A stretch of DNA of 64,000 nt, taken from the sequence record OR352954; one strand, given 5' to 3'. Shown piece after piece: positions 474-62,443 of this stretch; position 1 is the stretch's first letter; every line of letters begins with the position of its first letter. This stretch comes from Escherichia phage AV124. The notes under the pieces are model-generated. The model was not told the origin of the DNA and searched no databases. It saw nothing but the letters and a program-made list of their open reading frames with translations. The translations under genes were made by a program, and so were the position numbers.

Positions 474-951
474 AGTTGGTGATTTGATTAAAGCTATTCA
501 AGATGGTGAAGTAAATGTTTTTGGTCATGGTTGTAATTGCTTTGTGACTATGGGTAGCGGGATCGCCCCGTTGATCAAAGAAGCATTCCCTAAGATGTAC
601 GCTGCCGACCTGAAAACTGAGAAGGGCGACAAGACCAAGCTGGGAACCTGTACAATGGCCTTTTTGAATGATGGGTCTCTCGTAGGATTTAATCTGTACT
701 CACAGTACGGTTATAATCGCCGCAAACAGGGTCTCAGGGACCTTGACTACAATGCCCTGTATGATTCAATGGTTGAAATGAAAAAGCTCTTACAGAGCTA
801 TACAGACGGCCCTATGGACACCTATCGAATCGGGTTCCCTAAACTAGGTGCTGGGCTTGCAGGGGGTGACTGGAATGTCATCGAAGCAATGATCAAATCA
901 ATCTTCTTTGATTGTGATGTAACTGTGTACATTCTGCCGGAGAAAAAGTGA
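460..951 (+). CDS. macro-domain (ADP-ribose binding/processing) protein
   Basis: 'GDLIKAIQDGEVNVFGHGCNCFVTMGSGIA' and 'IGFPKLGAGLAGG' resemble macro-domain Gly-rich loops (cf. YmdB/MacroD). Confidence 0.55.
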   Translation: MLKYKVGDLIKAIQDGEVNVFGHGCNCFVTMGSGIAPLIKEAFPKMYAADLKTEKGDKTKLGTCTMAFLNDGSLVGFNLYSQYGYNRRKQGLRDLDYNALYDSMVEMKKLLQSYTDGPMDTYRIGFPKLGAGLAGGDWNVIEAMIKSIFFDCDVTVYILPEKK

Positions 952-3739: not shown

Positions 3740-4270
3740 TTGAAATTGAAAAATATGATTTTGGCAACCGCCTGTATCCTTTCTCTGACTACCACACCTG
3801 TCTTAGCCAAAGAAAGTGTAAAGAAGCCCAAAGTTATCCATCTTTGTAAGAAGGATGACACAGCGGTAAACATTTTAGCCTGCAACATGTACAAAGAAGC
3901 TCGTGGAGAGAGTGATTCCGGGTTAATGTCGATCGCATTCGTAACTTTGAATCGTAAGGATAACGATAAGTACCCTGGAACAGTAAAGAAGATCGTCTAC
4001 CAGCCCGGACAATTCTCCTGGACATCTTCAGGAACAACGTTTAAAGTCTATGAAAAGGATCGCTGGGAGAAGGCACAAGAGTTTGCAAAAGTTCTGATCA
4101 AGATTCATAAACAAAACAGGGTCGTCTACGATGCTCTGGACATAACACATGGAGCAACCCACTACCATTCACGAAAAGTAAAACCCTACTGGACAAAGGC
4201 CATGCTACGCACAGTCAGGATCGATAACCATATCTATTATAAAGAGAAAGAAGATTCTCAGGGGGCATGA
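3740..4270 (+). CDS. secreted SleB-like cell wall hydrolase (signal peptide)
   Basis: N-terminal 'MKLKNMILATACILSLTTTPVLA' signal peptide; 'YKEARGESDSG...VTLNRKD...IVYQPGQFSW' resembles Hydrolase_2/SleB catalytic domain. Confidence 0.55.
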   Translation: MKLKNMILATACILSLTTTPVLAKESVKKPKVIHLCKKDDTAVNILACNMYKEARGESDSGLMSIAFVTLNRKDNDKYPGTVKKIVYQPGQFSWTSSGTTFKVYEKDRWEKAQEFAKVLIKIHKQNRVVYDALDITHGATHYHSRKVKPYWTKAMLRTVRIDNHIYYKEKEDSQGA

Positions 4271-4274
4271 ACTC

Positions 4275-4430
4275 ATGAAGAAATTCTTAGCAATATTTGT
4301 TTGCATTACCCCTTTGTGTGTGATATTGTCACTGTCACAGCCCATATATTGGGAACAAATTTGTGGAGCATACGCAATAGGTATGGCTACAGCGGCCTTT
4401 AGACTAAATACAAACAACTGCAAAAAGTAG
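4275..4430 (+). CDS. small membrane protein (51 aa)
   Basis: ATG 4275 overlapping hydrolase stop; hydrophobic N-terminus 'MKKFLAIFVCITPLCVILSL'. Confidence 0.3.
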   Translation: MKKFLAIFVCITPLCVILSLSQPIYWEQICGAYAIGMATAAFRLNTNNCKK

Positions 4431-35695: not shown

Positions 35696-35787
35696 TTCGT
35701 CCTCCTTTCAGGACCATGATTCTTTTGTATATTTTACCATACGCGGCAGTGTTTTGCAAATAAAGGGGAAGAAGCTACAAATGAAAA

Positions 35788-35807
35788 AACCACCCCGAAG
35801 GGTGGTT
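35788..35807 (-). terminator. intrinsic terminator (minus strand)
   Basis: AACCACCC-CGAA-GGGTGGTT hairpin overlapping stop of upstream gene, followed on minus strand by TTTTTT. Confidence 0.5.
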
Positions 35808-49205: not shown

Positions 49206-49265
49206 AAAACCTCCTCAATAAGCTTGTTATGATTTTATCATAAATCTTCAAATAAAACAACGAAA

Positions 49266-49283
49266 AAGGGGCCGAAGCCCCTT
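49266..49283 (-). terminator. intrinsic terminator after tape measure gene (minus strand)
   Basis: AAGGGGC-CGAA-GCCCCTT hairpin then TTTTCGTTGTTTTATTT on minus strand. Confidence 0.55.
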
Positions 49284-49286
49284 GTG

Positions 49287-51698: not shown

Positions 51699-51710
51699 AA
51701 TTTCCTCAAT

Positions 51711-51743
51711 AAAAAAGCCAGGCTCCTGAAAAGGAACCTGGCT
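51711..51743 (-). terminator. stem-loop plus U-run immediately upstream of tape measure start (attenuator/terminator candidate)
   Basis: AGCCAGG...CCTGGCT 7-bp stem, then TTTTTATT, GAGGAA SD, ATG on minus strand. Confidence 0.3.
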
Positions 51744-51748
51744 TGAGA

Positions 51749-52135
51749 TTAACCTCTTCTGCCTTTGCTTCGGGGTTTAGCTGCTTCGGCGTCTGCTCTC
51801 GATTTCTCTTCTTTCTCATTAACATCGTTGATGAAATCTTCGACATCGAGATATTCGTTTAGCTTAAGCAAATATTCCATATCGGCAGACTCAAGGGAGA
51901 TATAAGATTCTCCCTTAAAGTTCTTCAGAGCACGGCACCAGAGATAGTCGAACCACGTCAGGGAACTATTTTTTCTTGCATAATCAATAGCTCTTTGGAC
52001 GACTTTAGAAATTTTGGACGGTGTTATTCCGCTGCCACTTCCGTCGGTTCCTGATCCACCGTCGCTACTTGGTGAACCATCCCGAAGTTGCCCAGAAGTC
52101 CCTGAAGGTCTGCGAAACCGTCTTTCGTGAAAAAA
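51749..52135 (-). other. -1 frame extension of the tail assembly chaperone (gpGT-like fusion via programmed frameshift)
   Basis: Slippery heptamer T_TTT_TTC (complement of 52129-52135) in 0 frame; -1 frame open with no start codon for ~125 codons to TAA at 51749-51751 (checked codon by codon). Confidence 0.5.
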
Positions 52136-52503
52136 CAGCCGTAGTTAATCTTCAGAACCTCCGCTACCAATTTGATCAGATCCAACATCTTGTCCTGGAA
52201 GATTGTATCAATATCAATCTTGCCAGCCATTCCGTTCACAGACACATCTTCAAGGATGAGGTCGAATAATTTTTCGATATCATCTTGCTCCATCTGCTCA
52301 AACAGGTATAGAATTGCGGTAGGTAGTGCTTCAGAGAGGTTAGACCCTCCGGTAAACAATGCACCACTAATAGTAGCCATTGGAACTGCGATATAACGAC
52401 CAATCTTAGGAAGGTTTTTCATAACCTTGGACGGAGACCAGTGTGTGATTACAAAGTTCTTACCAGCCAGATCGATTTCTGTGGTAGGTCTAAAATTCAT
52501 CAT
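52024..52503 (-). CDS. tail assembly chaperone (gpG-like, 0-frame product)
   Basis: ATG 52503 (MMNFRPTT...) after AGGAG; sits between tube and tape measure genes. Confidence 0.55.
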   Translation of the reverse strand: MMNFRPTTEIDLAGKNFVITHWSPSKVMKNLPKIGRYIAVPMATISGALFTGGSNLSEALPTAILYLFEQMEQDDIEKLFDLILEDVSVNGMAGKIDIDTIFQDKMLDLIKLVAEVLKINYGCFFTKDGFADLQGLLGNFGMVHQVATVDQEPTEVAAE

Positions 52504-52584
52504 GTGTACGCTCCTGCGTCTTTTAAAGTGTGGATATCCATGCGTGTTTGAAAAGGCCACATCCTTGTGGCACACGAAACGCTA

Positions 52585-53061: not shown

Positions 53062-54558
53062 TTACACTCCTGCTGTTACTTGTCCGCTGGAAGAAGTAGA
53101 CCCGGTTTTGTCTAGCAGAACAGAGATGCGAATCTTGACGAAATGCAAGGAACTGTTGTAGACTAACTCTACCTTAACATTGTTAAGGGTACGAGATGCA
53201 AGGTCGTTAGATGGGATGCTTGCACGAAGCGGAATTGTTACAACCGGATCGTAGAACACCTTGTTGACGGAATCATATCCGGTCAAAATAGACCCATTAG
53301 TGATACCGACGTTCAGAGGACTGTTCATCAGGACTGCTTTTAGGTTCGGCATATCATCATCGCTCATCTTCATGGAAAGGCCAAGATTAGAACGGCGAGA
53401 CATATATGCGAAGATACTCTCTTCACTTCTGAATTTCAGCCAGTGTCCGAAACGAACTACGTCAACATACTGACCGGAAGCACACTTACCTTCCCAGAAT
53501 GCACCAACACCATTAATCATACGATAGAAGTTCAGGTTCTGTCCCCAAATTGTTGGGCGATCGGAAGAACTGAGTGTTGGAGCAACTACGCCAGGCATTG
53601 TCTTCAGGTGAATAGAATCACCATATGAAGGATCATTAGAAGCCATAGCCCCTATGATTCCTCCTTCGGAGAATGCACTATCCGCAAGAGGGTCGTACAT
53701 ACCAATACTGGTATCATATTGGAGAGCTTTTAGCTGATTAGCGATAGAATTGCCATCAACAACCAAGGATAGTTGGTCAGCTGTTGAATATACATGCAGC
53801 TTATAATTAGCAGATGCATAAGCGGCTGCACCAAGAATCGCAGATGCAATATGTTGCTCTGTACTCAGGAAATACCAGTTGTTATTTGCGGTTTCAATCT
53901 CCGGGAGAATTCCGCTAACTGTTTCCGTAGAGGTATTTGTAAGTGTACAATTACCATAATCGATACCGATGCTGAATGGCTCGCCGATAACATCAGAAGA
54001 TGTTGCCATAATGCCCTGGTCAGATTCGGTTGTAACCACCTCGTCATTGTTAGTCGCCAGCAGAGAGCCGTCGCCTTTCGGGGTGATTGTTACAACACCA
54101 GCGGTAGCTACTGCACCGACAATTACGTTAAGCGTGGTATCAGAGTTGATTGCAGATGCTAGGGCTGTTGCAATACTGTCTGGCGTAGATGCGGCAGTAA
54201 CAGGAATAACGATGCTTTTAGTATATGCGCCTGCTGCAACGTTGAAACTTACCGGGTTATTAGGATCTACGTTTGTCTGCCCTGTGAAATTGATAACTGT
54301 TGATTCCCATGCTTGTCTTCCGATCATAAGCGCTTGGGGGCGGAAAGTCCCAGCAAAGGCTTTTGTCGCAAAAGTATACGCAGGGGAACCTACAGCGAAA
54401 CCATCCGCAGCGAGTTCATCCAGATCTGTATATGTACGTACTCGTTCTGGGAAAACGTTGTGAATTGCGATAAATAGAGGGGTTTCAAACCCTACGGTGT
54501 CGATTGGTTGTGTCCCGAGAACAACCGTTACGTCAACAACCTTATCATTATAAGCCAT
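53062..54558 (-). CDS. tail sheath protein
   Basis: 498 aa; sheath-tube-chaperone-TMP order typical of contractile tails. Confidence 0.5.
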   Translation of the reverse strand: MAYNDKVVDVTVVLGTQPIDTVGFETPLFIAIHNVFPERVRTYTDLDELAADGFAVGSPAYTFATKAFAGTFRPQALMIGRQAWESTVINFTGQTNVDPNNPVSFNVAAGAYTKSIVIPVTAASTPDSIATALASAINSDTTLNVIVGAVATAGVVTITPKGDGSLLATNNDEVVTTESDQGIMATSSDVIGEPFSIGIDYGNCTLTNTSTETVSGILPEIETANNNWYFLSTEQHIASAILGAAAYASANYKLHVYSTADQLSLVVDGNSIANQLKALQYDTSIGMYDPLADSAFSEGGIIGAMASNDPSYGDSIHLKTMPGVVAPTLSSSDRPTIWGQNLNFYRMINGVGAFWEGKCASGQYVDVVRFGHWLKFRSEESIFAYMSRRSNLGLSMKMSDDDMPNLKAVLMNSPLNVGITNGSILTGYDSVNKVFYDPVVTIPLRASIPSNDLASRTLNNVKVELVYNSSLHFVKIRISVLLDKTGSTSSSGQVTAGV

Positions 54559-54590
54559 TGATTTCCTCTTCTTCTATTTCTTTCATAAAG

Positions 54591-55136
54591 TTATTGTTGA
54601 TCATCTGGAGCCGGATAGTAATAAACCATCTCTGCATTCACCCTTTCGATATCCTCGAAGGCCCCTGTATCTGTCACGCCAACGCAGACGTTAAACGTGA
54701 TAAGTACAGTTGCACGGTTTTCGAAGGTTTGCATGTTCAACGGAACTCTCTGGCGCGATACCGTTGAGGAAGAAGAATATGCAAATGGGGAATTGGTTGG
54801 AAAATACTTGTCGCAGATGTAGGGGAGGCTCAAGGCCTGTAGAATCCGAGTTAATGCATTTGATGCTTTTCCTCGAAATGCTGTCAGGTTGTAAACCACC
54901 TCGTAGTTGTGAGTTATTACAGCGTTACCGCTCTCATCTACCCACTCGTTCGCAGCCCAGTCCATCTGGTCAGCGGTAACTTGGTTGAGCATGATGAACT
55001 CACCCTCTACCTTGGATATGACGTCTCCGTCCCCGTCAATTATTTTTCTCCCCGTGACTTCTTTGCAAAATCTGGCGAGCGTAACTGCGAGGGCGTCAAA
55101 AATATCATCGGAGTTTGTTACGAAGTCTGCCATCAT
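54591..55136 (-). CDS. neck/tail terminator protein
   Basis: Small late gene between head and sheath genes, overlapping neighbours. Confidence 0.3.
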   Translation of the reverse strand: MMADFVTNSDDIFDALAVTLARFCKEVTGRKIIDGDGDVISKVEGEFIMLNQVTADQMDWAANEWVDESGNAVITHNYEVVYNLTAFRGKASNALTRILQALSLPYICDKYFPTNSPFAYSSSSTVSRQRVPLNMQTFENRATVLITFNVCVGVTDTGAFEDIERVNAEMVYYYPAPDDQQ

Positions 55137-55570
55137 AGGCCTCCTTCTGTCCCCGCAGGCGTAGAGATCACATACGCTCTGTAACGGCTCACCCCTGTCG
55201 TCTGATACGGATCAGACTTGATAACAGTAAACCATTCCATTTCCCCACGGGAATTCATGAGCTGGATTTGATCTGCTAGCAGGAAAGAACCTTCGACAGG
55301 ACCTTTAAGAAGAGTTGACGAATATACAGTGAATGAATCATACTGTCTGCCGCCAGCCTCGGTCAACTGAGAAGTGTAGTCTCTTGCTGCCTTGCCTGTC
55401 AGAGGCTGAACAACGCATTCCAAGACATCAAACTCTTCATACTGAATAGCGATCTCTTGGTTTTCGAATGGATTGTCTGGGTCTGGCTGGGAAAAAGTAC
55501 GATGTCTTCCGATGAAGGTCTTTCTCGGAATCAGCTTATTCCTGCCTATTAGTCTGTAGCCTGGTGTCAT
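55133..55570 (-). CDS. head-tail adaptor/neck protein
   Basis: ORF track, start-stop overlap with neighbours. Confidence 0.3.
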   Translation of the reverse strand: MTPGYRLIGRNKLIPRKTFIGRHRTFSQPDPDNPFENQEIAIQYEEFDVLECVVQPLTGKAARDYTSQLTEAGGRQYDSFTVYSSTLLKGPVEGSFLLADQIQLMNSRGEMEWFTVIKSDPYQTTGVSRYRAYVISTPAGTEGGL

Positions 55571-56040
55571 TTAGTCCCCTTCCCAGTGGAAATCTTATAG
55601 GTTGCAGATGACTTCAGGTCGCCGTAGTGGAACATGGCCTCTTTAAATCCTTTGACATCAGCCCACGCATCAGATACGATGTTATTAGGGAACAGACCAC
55701 CTTCGATGACATATCTAATCTTGTCTGCACCTGCTTGACCGATTTGTTTCAGGACTGGAGTCGGGTCTTGTGCTCCCGCAGCCAATTGACCAAAGAGGTC
55801 GATCTGAAATTTTTTAAGTTCTTTCTGGAAAAGAACACCCGCGCTGGTCATGAAAGTACGAGCCGGGAGGTTATTCCAACCCTCTTGATGAATCGCTGCA
55901 AGAGTTGCAGTATTCAGGCCGGAATAGTGAGGATCGTCGAAAAAGCCGTAGCTTACCTGACGATAATCCAGCTTCTTAACCACATTAAAGAAGTTCATCA
56001 GCTGGCTAAGATCTTGCGTACTTGTGAAATTTGGTCTCAT
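55567..56040 (-). CDS. head completion/neck protein
   Basis: ORF track. Confidence 0.3.
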   Translation of the reverse strand: MRPNFTSTQDLSQLMNFFNVVKKLDYRQVSYGFFDDPHYSGLNTATLAAIHQEGWNNLPARTFMTSAGVLFQKELKKFQIDLFGQLAAGAQDPTPVLKQIGQAGADKIRYVIEGGLFPNNIVSDAWADVKGFKEAMFHYGDLKSSATYKISTGKGTK

Positions 56041-56105
56041 GACTGCATCCGTTTAGGTATTTTACCACATTATCTTAGCAAAATCAATGATAAAGGTTTG
56101 GATAA

Positions 56106-56624
56106 TTAGTAAGGCCAACGGCGAGGGTATCGACGAGGAATTCCGGGTACTCCAGTCTGTGGAATTATGCCACCCACATCGAAAGGTCCACGGGAGTTTC
56201 TGTCGTATTTAACACGGTTGAACTCGTCTTCACGAACGCCCCCAACGATAACAAGGCCTCTGACCGCACTTAAGCAATCATTGACATAGTCAGGGTTTTC
56301 AAGCAGCCAGTCGAGGAAGTCTTTCCAATTCTGGTAAGGAGAACCACCTTTAATCTGGATAGTTTCATCACCAATCTTTTCAAGGCGATCCGTGATTGAT
56401 GCCTCTCCTGTGTTCACTTCCTGAAGAATCAACCAACGTACCACGTCAACAAGGGTATTGTAAATAACGTAGTAAACGGTGCATGGCGTGTTATCATCAC
56501 TGGGGTAATTAGCCTTTGATTTCTCTATTGCCAAAAAGGCAAGGATAATCTCGTCGGGTAAGACTTCCGGGGAAATGGACCCAAGGAGCAGGCGGATATA
56601 AGCAACAATTTCTTGGTCTGTCAT
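56106..56624 (-). CDS. head-tail connector protein
   Basis: ORF track, 172 aa. Confidence 0.3.
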   Translation of the reverse strand: MTDQEIVAYIRLLLGSISPEVLPDEIILAFLAIEKSKANYPSDDNTPCTVYYVIYNTLVDVVRWLILQEVNTGEASITDRLEKIGDETIQIKGGSPYQNWKDFLDWLLENPDYVNDCLSAVRGLVIVGGVREDEFNRVKYDRNSRGPFDVGGIIPQTGVPGIPRRYPRRWPY

Positions 56625-56656
56625 TTTCGCTCCTTCAAGCTCTTCTATTTATCAAT

Positions 56657-56722
56657 ATCTTATCATAGAACGTCGATTTTGTCATCAAAAACACTTGACA
56701 TCGTGGAACAGGGTGCTATTCT
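56657..56722. promoter_or_regulatory. divergent promoter candidates
   Basis: Plus strand: TTGACA (56695-56700), 16-nt spacer, TGcTATTCT extended -10 (56714-56722). Minus strand: ATGACA (56685-56680), 17-nt spacer, TAAGAT (56662-56657). Confidence 0.35.
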
Positions 56723-56748
56723 CAAAGAAAATTATTGAGGAGAATCCC

Positions 56749-57147
56749 ATGAAAGCAGTAATAGCCGGTGTTATCACAGCCATCGTTGTCTCGGGTGGAC
56801 TTATCTACTTTATGAAAACCAACCCCAATATGAACAAATTCGACGATGTTTCTTCAAGCTGGTTGTCGGCTGAAGAAAAAACAGAGGCCATTCATCGGAT
56901 TGCTGGGATGAAATGCGATACAGAATTCAGAAAGGCATTCATTCCCGGCACTCTGACGACGCAGACAGGTATGTTAGATGAGATGGAAGAACAAGAAGAT
57001 AGTTTCCAAGTAATGAGAAATATGGGGATAGTGAACGGTACTGTTCTTGCAACAGGAACTTACATCTGTAAATATTATAAGGATGGCCGACAACCTTATC
57101 TTCAGGTATCTTTGAAACCGGAGGCGAGACCGCTACTAAAAAAATAA
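56749..57147 (+). CDS. membrane-anchored protein encoded opposite to the structural operon (moron)
   Basis: ATG 56749 after GAGGAG SD; N-terminal TM 'AVIAGVITAIVVSGGLIYF'; own promoter and terminator. Confidence 0.5.
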   Translation: MKAVIAGVITAIVVSGGLIYFMKTNPNMNKFDDVSSSWLSAEEKTEAIHRIAGMKCDTEFRKAFIPGTLTTQTGMLDEMEEQEDSFQVMRNMGIVNGTVLATGTYICKYYKDGRQPYLQVSLKPEARPLLKK

Positions 57148-57163
57148 GGCCCCGGAGGGCCTT
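57147..57163. terminator. bidirectional terminator
   Basis: AGGCCC-CGGA-GGGCCT hairpin between convergent stops; T-run on minus side, TTATATT on plus side. Confidence 0.5.
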
Positions 57164-57167
57164 TATA

Positions 57168-57464
57168 TTACGCCATAATGCCAGCAGCCTTCAGCTTGGA
57201 AAGAAGGGCATTAAAGTCGGTAACCAGTCCAGCTACGTCAGTCGCCACCGTGTTGGCCTGTGTTTCTGCCATTTTAACACCGCCAACCACAGAAGTGGTT
57301 GCAGCCACGGGAGCAAAAGTGGTAGGCTTGCCAGTAATGTCGGCCCATGCCACAGCTCCACCGCCTGCGACAGCGATTACATCAGCGAAGGAAATAACTC
57401 CGCCAGTTGCAAGGTCAATCAGTTTTGTACCGTAGACCAGTCCAGCTACACCAGATGTTGCCAT
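57168..57464 (-). CDS. virion protein paralogous to N-terminus of the collagen-like protein
   Basis: 'MATSGVAGLVYGTKLIDLATGG' resembles '[23 protein letters not shown]' of upstream gene. Confidence 0.4.
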   Translation of the reverse strand: MATSGVAGLVYGTKLIDLATGGVISFADVIAVAGGGAVAWADITGKPTTFAPVAATTSVVGGVKMAETQANTVATDVAGLVTDFNALLSKLKAAGIMA

Positions 57465-57476
57465 TTTTCAATCTCC

Positions 57477-58616
57477 TTAGATTGCGGGTAATTGTGTTGC
57501 AGATTCAGGTACAACCTGTTCTGCGATTAACAAAATAGTTGAAGGGATGAATGTTGATCCAACAGCGGAAATCAAACACTGAGTCCCGTTTGTCGCCATA
57601 TTGCCATTAACATCCACGCTGAACATATTGAGTAAGTTAATTGTATCCTGTTGAGATGTACCTTGTACACGAGCTGCCGTTAGTCTGTTACCGACTGAAG
57701 GTGGGAAATTTAATTCTATCGCACGGTTACTTGAACTACTCGACCAAGTTCCAATCAAATTCAGCTTAAAGTAAACGCTAAAGTTTGAGTTGTATACAAT
57801 CATCTTATCGACGGTGGTATTGAAGAGCGGAGATAAACTACCGGAATGGGGTATATTCTTCAGAAGAGTGATAAGATTTGTTTCTGGACCTATCGTTACA
57901 TCTGTAAGATTTGTCCAAGTAACTTCCACCTTTCTTCTTATACGAGATTCCGCAGGGGTTCCTGGCTCACCATCATCACCTTTTGGTCCCTCTGGACCCT
58001 GAGGTCCAGATGGGCCTTGTGGACCAGCAGGCCCTGTAGGCCCGACCGGGCCTGTAGCACCTTGTGCTGCCATTAATGCCCAGTGTGTGGCAGAAGCCGG
58101 GTCTCCAGTAGGAGGCACTCCAGTTGACGTCAGTGTGTTGAAATACAATGCCCCGTTGTAAACAGCAGCATCGTTCTCAACATATGTTGTCGTTGAGGAA
58201 TAGTTACCTTTAAACTCTAGACCCGTAGCCCCAGAAGGTCCCGTAGGTCCCTGTGGCCCCGTTGGGCCTTGAGGCCCTTGAGGGCCAGTTGGTCCTGCTG
58301 GTCCTTCTTCACCTTGAGGCCCTTCCGGGCCTTGAACTCCACGAGGTCCCTGCGGGCCTTGGGTTCCAGGTATTCCTTGGATTCCCTGAGGACCTGTAGC
58401 CCCATCCTGCACATTTATAATCGTTTTTACAGCATCTTGGTCAGCTGCTTTTAATATCTCTTTACCAATATCAGACGCATCGGTGATAGATTCAACAGTA
58501 ATCTCACCTGACCCGCCATTCATGATATCATCAAAATCGATCTTATTACCAGTCTTCTGACTAACAAGTGTTCTTCCATAAACAACACCAGCTACGCCAG
58601 CCGAAGCTATTGACAT
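57477..58616 (-). CDS. collagen-like repeat virion protein (head or tail fibre)
   Basis: Two Gly-X-Y tracts '[19 protein letters not shown]...' and '[34 protein letters not shown]'. Confidence 0.6.
57957..58403 (-). repeat. coding Gly-X-Y (collagen triple-helix type) tandem repeats
   Basis: Periodic GGNCCN nonamers on plus strand; corresponds to aa ~72-132 and ~186-220 of the 379-aa protein. Confidence 0.7.
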
Positions 58617-58632
58617 ACTCTACCTCTCAGGC

Positions 58633-59166
58633 TTAAGCTGTCAGCGCTGCCTCAAGATCAGCCAACATGTTTTCGAAGGTCTTGGTCTTCGACAGAGTAA
58701 CACCTTTGTTTGCTGCGAATTCAGCAAGTTTATCTTTGCTGCCTTTTTTATCCGCATCATCTCGTAAAGCAGAGGCTTCCGCAATAATTGCTTTCACATC
58801 GGGGTTTACTTGCTCATTGGCTTTTGCATTATCTTCTATAACCTGTGCAACCACGGTTTCTTCAACCTTTTGTTTAGCCACTGACGACTTAACATCAGAA
58901 GGTGGTGTAATCTCACCATTAAAGAATACGATAAAGTTGCCCATTCTCAGGGTGGAGGCCTTAGTATCTACAGGAAGACCTGACAGGTCTGCAAGTTCCT
59001 GGAAGAACTCCATGAAAGAACGAAAAGCCTTCATTTGCTTACCAAGGGCGAATCCATTTAGGGGTAAGCGGCTTGAAGCACTAATGTTCAATTCGGGAAT
59101 GTATGCACCAAAGAACTTGAAAAGCTCTACCTTGTTCGGGAAAATGCGATAATTTTGATTTGCCAT
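58633..59166 (-). CDS. hypothetical virion protein
   Basis: ATG 59166 (MANQNYRIF...) after AAGGAG; downstream of capsid terminator. Confidence 0.4.
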   Translation of the reverse strand: MANQNYRIFPNKVELFKFFGAYIPELNISASSRLPLNGFALGKQMKAFRSFMEFFQELADLSGLPVDTKASTLRMGNFIVFFNGEITPPSDVKSSVAKQKVEETVVAQVIEDNAKANEQVNPDVKAIIAEASALRDDADKKGSKDKLAEFAANKGVTLSKTKTFENMLADLEAALTA

Positions 59167-59229
59167 AGAATCTCCTTTGATCCTCATAAACCTCTTGACA
59201 TATAAGATCACTATGCTAATCTTAAAATG

Positions 59230-59260
59230 AAAAAAGGGAGAGGTGATTAACACCTCCCCC
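59230..59260 (-). terminator. intrinsic terminator after major capsid gene (minus strand)
   Basis: 10-bp stem (one mismatch) GGGGGAGGTG/CACCTCTCCC with TTAAT loop, then TTTTTT on minus strand. Confidence 0.55.
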
Positions 59261-59284
59261 TCTTAGAGGTAGCTTTAAGCTATA

Positions 59285-60298
59285 TTACGCGAAAGTACCA
59301 GTCAGTTTAACAACCAGCTCTGGGCGGCAGTTAACTGTCAGGAAGGAAGTTTCAGACTCTACCTTCTCTTCACGCAGGTAAGCAGAAGATTTGTACCACA
59401 GGTACAGTTCTTGTGCCGGAGTATTCGCTTCACGAACATCATCTGCTGGCGCATAGTGGATCTGGAACATGTTGTCGATACCGCGCGGCAGCATGTAAGC
59501 TTCACCGTCCGGGATGTAACCGGAGATATCTTCGATGTACAGAACGTTTTTGTGAACGAAGGAACGGTTGTTAGCGTTTTCCTGACCTTCACCAAGACGA
59601 CGACGCAGCGGCTCTTGAGTAGAGCTGTAGTATTGGTATGCGTTCATGATCAGCGGGTGAGCGATGAAAGCAGAGAACCATTTACGAGAAGCCAGGACTA
59701 CGATGTCGTAGTTGTTTCCGTTGTCACCAGCGTTGTCGATGATGAATGCACGACCATCGTTTTCGAGCAGGTCAGACGGGTCAACTGCAACGTCAGTGAA
59801 ATCTACGTTAACAACTTCCTGGGTAACACCCCATTCGGTGAAGTAGTTATACTGAGCGGTCGGGTCCTGCGGTGCCCAAGATTTACCCATGATTGCCTGA
59901 AGCATTGCTTTTTCTTTAAGCTGTTCATGAGAAATACGGATACGACGAACAACACGTTCAACTACGTCCTGTACAGATTTAGGAGCATCCGCAGTGAAAT
60001 ATTTACGGAAGTTCTGTACGTCTGCCGGAGTGATCTGACGATCCAGCGGGAAGAACGGGATGTTGAAGTTTTTCAGTTGGGCCTTTTCAGTACCAACGTA
60101 GTTACGTTCACCCTGACGACGACGAGCTGGGAAGTCGGTTACAACTTCGTCAACACGCTCGATCTGGGCGATAGTAGAGACACCGTGATAAGCCTCGAAA
60201 AGGTTCATGTTGGTGATCATACGGTACTGACGAGGTACGATTTCCAGAGTTGCGCCTAGATCGACGATCTGGAAATCATTAGTGCGTACTACTGCCAT
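59285..60298 (-). CDS. major capsid protein (lambda gpE-like family suspected)
   Basis: 337 aa; follows scaffold and decoration genes; followed by strong terminator; pattern resembles Phage_cap_E proteins. Confidence 0.6.
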   Translation of the reverse strand: MAVVRTNDFQIVDLGATLEIVPRQYRMITNMNLFEAYHGVSTIAQIERVDEVVTDFPARRRQGERNYVGTEKAQLKNFNIPFFPLDRQITPADVQNFRKYFTADAPKSVQDVVERVVRRIRISHEQLKEKAMLQAIMGKSWAPQDPTAQYNYFTEWGVTQEVVNVDFTDVAVDPSDLLENDGRAFIIDNAGDNGNNYDIVVLASRKWFSAFIAHPLIMNAYQYYSSTQEPLRRRLGEGQENANNRSFVHKNVLYIEDISGYIPDGEAYMLPRGIDNMFQIHYAPADDVREANTPAQELYLWYKSSAYLREEKVESETSFLTVNCRPELVVKLTGTFA

Positions 60299-62379: not shown

Positions 62380-62443
62380 TTTCCCCGTTGATAGTTATTT
62401 TAACACCGTTTATTTTCTTTTGCAAGTTATTTCAGTGAGTTGC

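Follow-up and report, generated by a model that had tools for sequence, protein, structure and literature searches.

The locus and its genomic setting

The window (the whole stretch of 64,000 nucleotides that was analysed) is 96-97% identical to phages VLCpiM5b and KpS8 and belongs to the Klebsiella Mydovirus group of the Vequintavirinae, a subfamily whose phages are called virulent or lytic in the literature (PMC7344957, PMC3606486). In KpS8, all annotated features of a 47-kb block, from 24.6 to 71.8 kb, are carried by the minus strand, with the sole exception of the orthologue of the gene considered here. The features of the locus are the following.

56106..56624, minus strand: head-tail adaptor gene, 172 aa, phrog_2663, which opens the neck/tail unit
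56642..56665, no strand assigned: conserved 24-nt block in the adaptor mRNA leader, covering about -64 to -87 relative to the plus-strand start that is predicted
56657..56685, minus strand: late-class promoter candidate for the adaptor/neck genes, 9/12 consensus matches plus TG; the motif reads TATGATAAGATA
56687..56722, plus strand: predicted promoter of the membrane-protein gene, host sigma-70 early/middle class, from consensus match and conservation
56737-56742, plus strand: Shine-Dalgarno sequence GAGGAG, 6 nt 5' of the ATG at 56749
56749..57147, plus strand: coding sequence, 132 aa, phrog_11434 'membrane protein', from family HMM and conserved start
57146..57163, both strands: predicted bidirectional intrinsic terminator hairpin, 7-bp GC-rich stem and 4-nt loop, from folding and conservation
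57168..57464, minus strand: head-fibre protein gene, 98 aa, PF11133 Phage_head_fibr (E = 5e-11)

The head-fibre gene, the counterpart of which is named 'head fiber protein' in the records of relatives, is the final gene of the head unit and is convergent with the membrane-protein gene. On the other side, the adaptor gene is present in 271 phage records. Its homologue in rV5_ev147 is named 'Ad1 adapter protein' and homologues carry PF26075 Phage_Adaptor_PhiTE. Judged from this gene order, the membrane-protein cassette is placed at the border of the head and neck/tail late transcription units. A first-pass annotation had described here a plus-strand unit with its own promoter, an SD sequence, an ORF and a bidirectional terminator, lying between neck and head genes. 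Every one of these elements was found where it had been placed, down to the GAGGAG sequence and the 132-aa frame, the start of which is conserved.

The membrane-protein gene and its family

The protein matches the HMM of phrog_11434 with E = 1.1e-67, residues 1-131 being aligned to profile positions 4-134 of 134. PHROGs classes this family under 'moron, auxiliary metabolic gene and host takeover'. The gene is already in public records as 'membrane protein' and is one more member of its family. In particular, the product of PVP-SE1 gene 66 (YP_004893872, 'membrane protein') is orthologous, with the same locus, the same opposite orientation, and the same promoter and bidirectional terminator. 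Its record annotates one TM domain and nothing material distinguishes it from the gene of the window. Other orthologues occur, among others, in GAP31, 4MG, Av-05, KB57 and KpS8, all of them assigned to phrog_11434. In the records and the accessible literature, no orthologue has been given a function by experiment.

In each of the 64 phage records, as well as in metagenomic contigs, the ORF is uninterrupted, its dN/dS is 0.05-0.18, and 19 residues, both cysteines included, are invariant across 14 family sequences. The GGAG/GAG core of the SD sequence is kept across the aligned loci. These comparisons indicate that the membrane protein is shaped by purifying selection. Two other ways of reading the region were rejected. 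A 150-aa version of the ORF, started by TTG, would begin inside the -35 hexamer at an unconserved position, and a 41-aa plus-strand ORF (56613..56738, annotated in FENT2 by PHANOTATE) spans both promoters. Beneath the membrane-protein gene, the ORF list contains no minus-strand ORF of at least 40 aa.

The family is a narrow one. A word-indexed search of 5.8 billion proteins returned only two near-identical clusters, and an exhaustive profile search of 1.84 billion representatives returned four true clusters of ~135 aa, with no sequence relatives beyond about these four phage clusters. Five further matches of the profile search were discarded as repeat-summation artefacts, being repeat proteins that align repeatedly to varied short parts of the profile; they include P0006, an adhesin of the VCBS/RTX type, and P0010, which is a DNA repeat in translation. 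By tblastn, no match was obtained beyond the same 64 phage records. Searches of Pfam (E up to 10, all 10 members), NCBIfam, PADLOC and PDB sequence profiles gave nothing meaningful.

Two promoter classes back to back

The plus-strand promoter is composed of an A-tract, AAAAACAC, at 56687-56694, directly followed by a -35 TTGACA (56695-56700), a 16-nt spacer, a TG (56714-56715) and a -10 TATTCT (56717-56722). This corresponds to 10/12 consensus matches plus TG, and the extended -10 promoter of the first-pass annotation (TTGACA...TGcTATTCT) is thus recovered at its position. Twelve loci from at least three genera (Mydovirus, Seunavirus, Avunavirus) and from metagenomes were compared. The -35 TTGACA is identical in 12/12 and the A-tract is invariant; the extended -10, TGnTAnnnT, is nearly invariant, with TA---T of the -10 fully so, and the spacer is unconserved. 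In a 10-kb scan, 15 promoter-like sites were found against 13.9 expected from shuffled sequence, and terminator-like sites numbered 17 against 9.1 +/- 3.7 expected. Since the consensus matches to promoters and terminators are by themselves not above chance, their significance rests on conservation.

In KpS8, TTGACA-N16-18 promoters are found 50-95 nt 5' of about 20 non-structural genes. Taking as the definition of the class an A-rich upstream element with a -35 TTGAC(A) and a -10 TAnnnT spaced by 16-19 nt, the whole placed 50-95 nt in front of non-structural genes, the arrangement AAAAACAC-TTGACA-16-TG-c-TATTCT has the features of a sigma-70 early/middle promoter of the Vequintavirinae. It also resembles the early promoter consensus of Certrevirus, AAAA(N3)TGTTGAC(N19)TATAAT (PMC7344957). 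From this promoter class alone we infer early timing of the membrane-protein gene. A literature search for transcriptomics of Vequintavirinae gave nothing relevant.

The mirror-image promoter candidate that had been proposed for the neck genes is also present and conserved. On the minus strand, a -35 ATGACA (56685-56680) is followed by 17 nt, a TG and a -10 TAAGAT (56662-56657), both blocks being invariant across the 12 aligned loci. This candidate fits the TGnTAAAATA motifs found 5' of four more minus-strand structural genes in the window, and also in KpS8. It likewise matches the late motif of rV5, TggTAaAAtA (PMC3606486). Structural genes bear motifs of the TGnTAAAATA type, and the TTGACA class precedes non-structural genes. 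The -35 elements of the two promoters are only 9 bp apart.

The 24-nt block that partly overlaps the minus-strand promoter is unique within the window at up to 3 mismatches and is kept in 10/12 loci. It contains an exact match to the IHF consensus, TATCAATATCTTA, at 56650-56662. Considering that 64 kb contain 5 matches to this pattern where 4.05 would be expected, its designation as a predicted IHF site is only suggestive.

A terminator common to two convergent genes

The hairpin AAGGCCC-CGGA-GGGCCTT (57146-57163) overlaps the stop codon of the membrane-protein gene and is separated by 4 nt from the point where the convergent head-fibre gene ends. It is flanked by an A-run (57139-57144) and by a T-rich run; on the minus strand the hairpin is thus followed by a U-run, and on the plus strand by a weaker one. 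A terminator was detected on the minus strand with the tail ATTTTTTT. The hairpin energy is -11.7 kcal/mol on the plus strand and -14.5 on the minus strand, and the folding z-score is weak, at about -1.4. Across the loci the hairpin is kept, and TH18 and Av-05 show a compensatory change in it from GGCC/GGCC to GACC/GGTC (G-C to A-T). In the PVP-SE1 record (NC_016071), terminators are annotated on both strands. The GC hairpin that the first-pass annotation had assigned in common to the two convergent genes thus holds, and it is predicted to terminate both the plus-strand gene and the head-fibre transcript. No RNA family of Rfam was found in 56000-57600. With a predicted promoter at one end and a predicted terminator at the other, the inverted accessory cassette appears as a genuine gene with independent transcription.

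An old insertion at a transcription-unit boundary

The first-pass annotation had suggested that homologous phages be checked at this locus. The gene is found at exactly the same site in Mydovirus, Seunavirus, Avunavirus and TH18 and is absent from that site in rV5, CB7 (Certrevirus), Hena1 (Henunavirus) and Aeromonas phage 2L372X. It is limited to the clade in which adaptors are at least 75% identical to that of the window. Since sister genera live without the gene, its function is dispensable for the basic cycle. In rV5, CB7 and Hena1, a terminator lies directly 5' of the adaptor gene. It is followed by a late-type motif in CB7 and, weakly, in Hena1, and by none visible in rV5. In 2L372X, a late-type motif is present upstream of the adaptor gene without an obvious terminator.

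Orthologues are 37-45% identical between genera and 92-100% identical within Mydovirus, and they co-diverge with their neighbours. The GC content of the gene is 41.9% against 45.2% for the window, and its GC3 is 0.41 for neighbours at 0.40-0.50, so that comparison with the neighbouring genes reveals no clear anomaly that would signal a foreign origin.

The locus had been called a moron, and this view is retained in part. Like the morons described by Hendrix and Juhala in lambdoid and other temperate phages, the cassette is an extra gene that lies between conserved structural genes with its own promoter and terminator, as seen at the sequence level in 12 loci, and it stands at a unit junction. 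It departs from them in several respects. Instead of being recent or sporadic, it is fixed across three genera and its base composition is not distinct. Its terminator is common to the neighbouring gene and probably older than the cassette. Finally, the host phage is virulent, so that the part of the moron concept that concerns expression in a repressed prophage is probably inapplicable. Taken together, the comparisons describe a cassette that sits at a transcription-unit boundary like a moron, yet is ancient and vertically inherited.

Predicted topology and fold of the protein

Residues 3-22 (nt 56755-56814) form a hydrophobic helix with a Kyte-Doolittle hydropathy of 2.1-2.4, an N-flank charge of +1 to +2 and a C-flank about neutral. 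The single N-terminal transmembrane helix announced for this protein is therefore upheld as a hydrophobic segment, which may be an anchor, a cleavable signal peptide or an element for SAR-like release. The soluble domain announced after it is modelled with confidence as a compact alpha+beta domain. Residues about 36-132 (nt 56854-57144) would adopt a cystatin-like fold containing the invariant C56 and C107; two AF2 runs agree on its elements, with a pLDDT around 90. The prediction consists of a single long helix lying on an antiparallel sheet of four strands, that is, the helix wrapped by an antiparallel sheet that characterises the cystatin fold. Considering the weak charge asymmetry and the two invariant cysteines, a periplasmic topology is suggested. 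The N-terminus would probably be cytoplasmic and the domain periplasmic with a predicted disulfide, the protein being either anchored or released.

Cystatin inhibitors are marked by a conserved N-terminal Gly, by QxVxG in the first hairpin and by PW in the second; the family alignment contains neither QxVxG nor PW, hairpin 1 reading E-E/T-E-Q-x-E/D and hairpin 2 Y-K-D-G-x-x-P. From the secondary-structure topology, the invariant residues are expected to gather at a single end of the domain, formed by the SSWLS segment that precedes the helix and by the E81-Q82 and Y110-K-D-G-x-x-P116 hairpins. This conserved end is probably the binding site for a partner in the periplasm or the inner membrane. 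Foldseek returned only the protein itself in BFVD and nothing below E = 0.02 in the PDB. VirB8, TraE and DotI, bitopic inner-membrane proteins with cystatin-/NTF2-like periplasmic domains, as well as cystatin and latexin, are at most 12% identical to the phage domain. Compared with VirB8, the phage protein is of smaller size and simpler build, having one long helix and four strands, and it has no secretion-system context.

Possible functions

The reading that we favour, with a probability of about 0.55 for the explanation as a whole, is that of an early-expressed, insulated envelope-protein cassette at the boundary of the head and neck units. The gene lies, inverted, between the terminator of the head unit and the late promoter of the neck unit, and the cassette reuses the head-unit terminator in the opposite direction. 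Unmodified host RNA polymerase would transcribe it from the start of infection, and its orientation and terminator would shield it from late transcription. The exported domain, facing the periplasm and stabilised by a disulfide, would then meet an envelope partner.

The role itself is more tentative. The likeliest one, though held at well under even odds, is an early change in the envelope of the infected cell, which might serve superinfection exclusion or protection against the attack of later phages from outside. The logic would be that of T4 Imm and Sp and of P1 Sim, which are unrelated proteins. The genes for Imm, Sp and Llp are early ones, and their products act in the envelope. The protein of the locus resembles T4 Imm and Spackle, T5 Llp and P1 Sim in being small and exported or membrane-bound, and its gene has a non-late promoter, is dispensable and is confined to one clade. 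With a predicted cystatin-like alpha+beta fold and no lipobox, the protein described here differs from the helical Sp and Imm and from the lipoprotein Llp. Pfam, NCBIfam, PADLOC and PDB searches revealed no homology to exclusion, immunity or defence families, only its own PHROG being matched. No specific fold link to any exclusion protein was found with Foldseek, and a literature search for exclusion functions in Seunavirus or Mydovirus gave nothing relevant. With still more reserve, it may be imagined that the protein represents an unrecognised type of early envelope effector, the cystatin-like periplasmic domain of which, either tethered to the membrane or released, would bind an envelope target via its conserved loop edge. 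Candidate targets would be the tail lysin or DNA-entry machinery of an incoming phage, or a host periplasmic or inner-membrane protease.

An unlikely alternative is a regulator of lysis timing, in the form of a periplasmic antiholin-like or holin-accessory protein of the T4 RI kind that would bind the holin or a secreted endolysin and delay lysis. The protein is short, with a hydrophobic N-terminus (Gly/Ala/Ser/Thr 37-53%) and a predicted periplasmic domain, as in RI-type regulators. The phage encodes rIIA/rIIB, and no gene has been assigned to an antiholin in these phages. Moreover, Mydovirus KP12 has a SAR endolysin, and Vequintavirinae a SleB-like hydrolase with a signal peptide, which would need periplasmic restraint. 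However, Certrevirus has the SleB-like enzyme and lacks the membrane-protein gene. T4 RI is all-helical, whereas the predicted fold is alpha+beta. In Pfam, PHROGs and other profile searches, neither RI nor T nor a holin family of any kind was matched, and no lysis gene is nearby, the holin, endolysin and spanin candidates being elsewhere in Mydovirus/Vequintavirinae genomes. Thus, neither the similarity nor the lysis-gene linkage of a holin or antiholin of the T4 T and RI type was found. An early-class promoter also suits lysis timing less, although T4 rI is early-transcribed too. An i-spanin of the Rz type was considered separately and rejected, the domain being alpha+beta instead of a coiled coil and there being no adjacent lipoprotein ORF. 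The spanin pair of KP12 is peg.134/135, and spanin pairs of the subfamily adjoin the terminase gene (PMC7344957).

It is similarly improbable that the cystatin-like domain inhibits a periplasmic enzyme, by blocking an envelope protease of the host, or else a peptidoglycan hydrolase that is the host's own or the tail lysin of an incoming phage. Phage proteins, or the infected cell's wall, would thereby be shielded, and this mechanism merges with exclusion if the target is the tail lysin. The likeness to cystatin inhibitors is at the level of the fold only, with 3-10% identity and with QxVxG and PW missing. The same fold also forms NTF2-like and VirB8-like scaffolds devoid of inhibitor function, and none of the Foldseek matches was significant.

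A morphogenesis-linked or virion-associated membrane factor, the position of which between head and neck genes would reflect a role in assembly or in the particle, is very unlikely. The synteny with the head-fibre and adaptor genes is conserved, and a 12-kDa band from SDS-PAGE of KP12 virions was ascribed to a 'putative membrane protein' (PMC9902359). As far as the accessible text of that report indicates, this band was apparently named from its size alone (PMC9902359). The product of kps8_044, a 104-aa 'membrane protein' of the tail-fibre cluster, suits 12 kDa better than the protein of the locus, of about 14.7 kDa. In addition, the gene lies on the opposite strand under a promoter of non-late class, rV5, Certrevirus and Henunavirus make the same virion without it, and a virion protein that is assembled in the cytoplasm would not usually carry an exported disulfide domain.

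Finally, a non-functional chance ORF with chance promoter and terminator matches, an idea that could draw on the weak hairpin z-score and on promoter- and terminator-like matches not clearly commoner than in shuffled sequence, is effectively refuted by the comparative data, considering the frame intact in 64 records, its dN/dS of 0.05-0.18, the HMM match, the confident fold, and the clear phylogenetic footprint left by the promoter hexamers and the hairpin.

Significance

In most respects, this is an ordinary phage accessory gene, annotated already in public records. On another hand, Mydovirus and Seunavirus phages such as KpS8, KB57 and PVP-SE1 are candidates for therapy or biocontrol. In this context, a conserved and probably early envelope protein is a suspect for exclusion between the phages of a cocktail, for a change of the infected-cell surface, or for the timing of lysis. 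The two promoter classes placed back to back make the locus a handy test bed for the early-to-late switch in Vequintavirinae. The locus also exemplifies how an accessory gene may settle between a terminator and a late promoter, thereby rendering the terminator bidirectional. If the reading as an unrecognised envelope effector is true, Mydovirus, Seunavirus and Avunavirus would exclude other phages or protect the envelope by a mechanism unrelated to those of T4 Imm/Sp, T5 Llp and P22 SieA.

Genomic setting of the membrane-protein gene

In megablast searches with positions 54000-60000, the window is identified as a Klebsiella phage from the Vequintavirinae genus Mydovirus, 96-97% identical to VLCpiM5b, P8734, KpS8, KB57 and Mydo. 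Coverage is only 81-83% because of a minus-strand gene (57477..58616) that varies even between near-identical Mydoviruses, being absent in KpS8 and replaced in VLCpiM5b by one for a 210-aa protein. Its 379-aa product, encoded among the head genes, carries collagen-like Gly-X-Y repeats (PF01391) and, at its C-terminus, a tail-needle-knob domain of the Sf6 type (PF16532, 2e-29). Because its first ~30 residues resemble the N-terminus of the adjoining head-fibre protein (57168..57464), it may be a second, longer fibre of the capsid.

The membrane-protein gene sits within a long minus-strand structural block. Of all features annotated between 24.6 and 71.8 kb in the complete KpS8 genome (CDS and tRNA genes), only kps8_068, the 'membrane protein' orthologous to the ORF studied here, lies on the plus strand. 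The elements proposed by the first-pass annotation (promoter, SD sequence, 132-aa ORF, hairpin and mirror-image minus-strand promoter) were all found at the expected positions:

56695-56700 (TTGACA), 16 nt, 56714-56715 (TG), 56717-56722 (TATTCT), plus strand: promoter, 10/12 match plus TG
56685-56680 (ATGACA), 17 nt, TG, 56662-56657 (TAAGAT), minus strand: mirror-image promoter
56737-56742, plus strand: GAGGAG, upstream of the ATG
56749 (ATG) to 57145-57147 (stop), plus strand: membrane-protein ORF, 132 aa
57146-57163, both strands: terminator-like hairpin AAGGCCC/CGGA/GGGCCTT
57168, minus strand: end of the convergent head-fibre gene (PF11133), 4 nt from the hairpin

Two further minus-strand regions concern gene calling. 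The 325-nt 'gap' at 51699..52023, downstream of the tail assembly chaperone ORF (52024..52575), is one long open frame overlapping the 3' end of that ORF in another frame; together they look like a programmed-frameshift G/GT-type chaperone pair overlooked by gene callers. The GTG-extended N-terminus of ORF 58633..59253 contains a strong terminator at 59232..59264, a 14-bp hairpin plus T-run that lies directly 3' of the gene for the major capsid protein (59285..60298). Since, in addition, the PHROG match of this ORF starts at residue 30, its true start is probably the ATG at that residue.

Conservation of the promoters and terminator

The hairpin was picked up by a terminator scan on the minus strand, with the tail ATTTTTTT, and its folding energy is -11.7 kcal/mol on the plus strand and -14.5 kcal/mol on the minus strand. 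Scans gave 15 promoter-like sites versus 13.9 in shuffled sequence, and 17 terminator-like sites versus 9.1 +/- 3.7. Because consensus matches alone are no commoner than in shuffled sequence, the comparison with related phages has to carry the argument.

By tblastn, the membrane protein occurs in 64 phage records, with identities of 90-100% in Mydovirus and 39-50% in Seunavirus (PVP-SE1, GAP31, 4MG, FENT2, SPLA5a, EspYZU15), Avunavirus (Av-05) and TH18. In every locus inspected, the gene has an identical position and opposite orientation between the adaptor and head-fibre genes; this placement extends to the most distant metagenomic members, P0005 (31% identity) and P0004. In TH18 (3938..4342, plus strand) and phages 19-1-2 and 24-2-1, the orthologue is labelled 'adenosine deaminase', which no search supports and which looks like an annotation error.

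In an intergenic alignment of 12 sequences, the TTGACA, the preceding A-tract and the T-A----T of the -10 element are invariant, and 11 of the sequences have the extended -10 TG; neither the 16-nt spacer nor the leader shows conservation. Such a pattern is that of a classical promoter footprint. The same invariance holds for the minus-strand hexamers. Conservation extends to the terminator stem, which has a compensatory change from GGCC..GGCC to GACC..GGTC in TH18 and Av-05; in the PVP-SE1 record, rho-independent terminators are annotated at this place for both strands. The footprint and the compensatory change thus back the earlier proposal of an own promoter and a bidirectional terminator. 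In Enterobacter phage FENT2, a PHANOTATE call for a 45-aa 'hypothetical protein' (798..935, plus strand) spans both divergent promoters; its window equivalent, a 41-aa ORF (56613..56738) also spanning them, is almost certainly spurious.

Two promoter classes back to back

Other minus-strand structural genes of the window are preceded by the motifs TATGGTAAAATA, TATGATAAAAT, TGTGGTAAAATA and GGTGTTAAAATA. These TG-n-TAAAATA motifs, accompanied by weak -35 hexamers (TTTGCA, TTGATT, TTGCAA), lie in intergenic regions upstream of four structural genes:

35696..35805, minus strand: TG-n-TAAAATA region
49206..49286, minus strand: TG-n-TAAAATA region
56041..56105, minus strand: TG-n-TAAAATA region
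62380..62443, minus strand: TG-n-TAAAATA region

TGnTAAAATA occurs 6 times in the 143.8 kb of KpS8, 4 of these being minus-strand sites within the structural block. The late-gene motif of rV5, TggTAaAAtA, is of the same type (PMC3606486), and the motif probably represents the late promoter class of the window phage. By its sequence, the adaptor promoter TATGATAAGATA belongs to this class.

On another hand, perfect TTGACA-N16-18-TAnnnT sites are found 50-95 nt upstream of about 20 non-structural KpS8 genes (for example kps8_016, 039, 098, 115, 116, 120, 135, 140, 169, 178, 200, 210, 211, 215, 216, 218, 237 and 241). The early promoter consensus of Certrevirus is AAAA(N3)TGTTGAC(N19)TATAAT (PMC7344957). 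The membrane-protein promoter, AAAAACAC-TTGACA-16-TGcTATTCT, with its -35 at 54 nt from the ATG, is assigned by its motif to this non-late class. Unmodified host RNA polymerase would then transcribe the gene from early in infection, and the opposite orientation and the terminator would insulate it from late transcription.

The mirrored -35 arrangement at 56680-56700 recurs in KpS8 (MT178275.1) at 72007..72045, where divergent TTGACA promoters at 72012 (minus) and 72016 (plus) lie back to back at the divergence of leftward and rightward gene blocks. A 24-nt block of the adaptor mRNA leader (56642..56665), at about -64 to -87 relative to the predicted transcription start on the plus strand, is conserved in 10/12 loci across genera and is not shared by other late-gene leaders. 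It contains an exact IHF-consensus match (TATCAATATCTTA, 56650-56662), which is only suggestive because the pattern occurs 5 times in 64 kb versus 4.05 expected.

Origin of the extra gene

A total of 271 phage records contain the adaptor gene. No opposite-strand ORF separates it from the upstream gene in rV5-type phages, Certrevirus CB7, Henunavirus Hena1 or Aeromonas phage 2L372X; homologous phages thus divide into these and the carriers, Mydovirus, Seunavirus, Avunavirus and TH18. The spacer holds a terminator hairpin followed by a late-type motif (CATGATAAAAT) in CB7, a terminator followed by a weaker one (TGCTAACAT) in Hena1, a terminator only in rV5, and a late-type motif (TGGTAAGAT) without obvious terminator in 2L372X. 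Carriers are exactly the phages with adaptors that share at least 75% identity with that of the window; the value is 65% in Hena1, 57% in rV5 and about 50% in Certrevirus. Judging from this distribution, the gene is extra relative to related phages, and the simplest history would be that the ancestor shared by Mydovirus, Seunavirus and Avunavirus acquired it once, with vertical inheritance since. Its insertion point would have been exactly the junction between the terminator of the head unit and the promoter of the neck unit, the pre-existing terminator now being used in both directions.

Base composition is unremarkable (GC 41.9% versus 45.2%; GC3 0.41 versus 0.40-0.50 in neighbour genes). 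The locus resembles a moron, as first proposed, in its anatomy, an extra gene at a terminator/promoter junction, but not in having unusual composition or a non-vertical history.

The protein and its possible role

The dN/dS of the membrane protein (0.05-0.18 at unsaturated distances) points to purifying selection, with a dN ~3-15 times that of the adjoining adaptor in the pairs compared. Nineteen residues are invariant among 14 sequences (M1, P26, S37, W38, L39, S40, E43, R50, C56, D57, F60, F64, G74, E81, Y105, C107, K111, G113, L130). The N-terminal hydrophobic stretch is unconserved in sequence (Kyte-Doolittle 2.1-2.4; 37-53% Gly/Ala/Ser/Thr/Cys). Its flanking charge, +1 to +2 on the N side and about 0 on the C side, and the two invariant cysteines favour an N-in/C-out topology that places the domain in the periplasm. 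With small residues close to its end (SGG, GAGA, AAGT), the stretch may alternatively act as a cleavable signal peptide or allow SAR-like release.

AlphaFold2 predictions from alignments of 10 and 14 sequences agree in structure (pLDDT 81.5 and 88.4, around 90 in the domain): helix 41-61, strands 69-81, 85-96, 99-110 and 117-122, and helix 124-129. The domain is cystatin-like and probably periplasmic. It has neither of the cystatin motifs QxVxG and PW, and Foldseek returned no significant match in PDB or BFVD. One end of the sheet would, in the predicted topology, bring together the invariant SSWLS segment and the E81-Q82 and YKDGxxP hairpins, forming a putative binding edge. An exhaustive profile search of 1.84 billion representatives yielded only 4 genuine clusters, indicating a tiny, phage-restricted family, and no sequence link to any characterised family was found.

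The protein may be envisaged as an early-made envelope protein, the periplasmic domain of which would bind an envelope partner. The best reading, tentatively held (probability about 0.3), is that it serves superinfection exclusion or protects the infected cell. Regulation of lysis timing is rather doubtful; a core lysis role is unlikely, since the spanin, holin and endolysin candidates of the subfamily are placed elsewhere. Inhibition of a periplasmic enzyme, partly overlapping the exclusion reading, appears no better placed than lysis timing. An assembly or virion factor is the least probable: a '12 kDa putative membrane protein' band is reported in the KP12 paper, but this label appears to be size-based and the band fits the 104-aa kps8_044 homologue better; the non-late promoter class and the absence of the gene from sister genera with the same virion make a virion role unlikely.

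Public annotation already includes the gene, the single hydrophobic helix of its product and the bidirectional terminator (PVP-SE1 gene 66; phrog_11434). The present analysis adds purifying selection on the protein, its cystatin-like, probably periplasmic domain, the contrast between its non-late promoter and the late class of the mirror-image one, and the placement of the cassette at a terminator/late-promoter junction that is seen bare in CB7 and Hena1. The locus is a phage accessory gene cassette.
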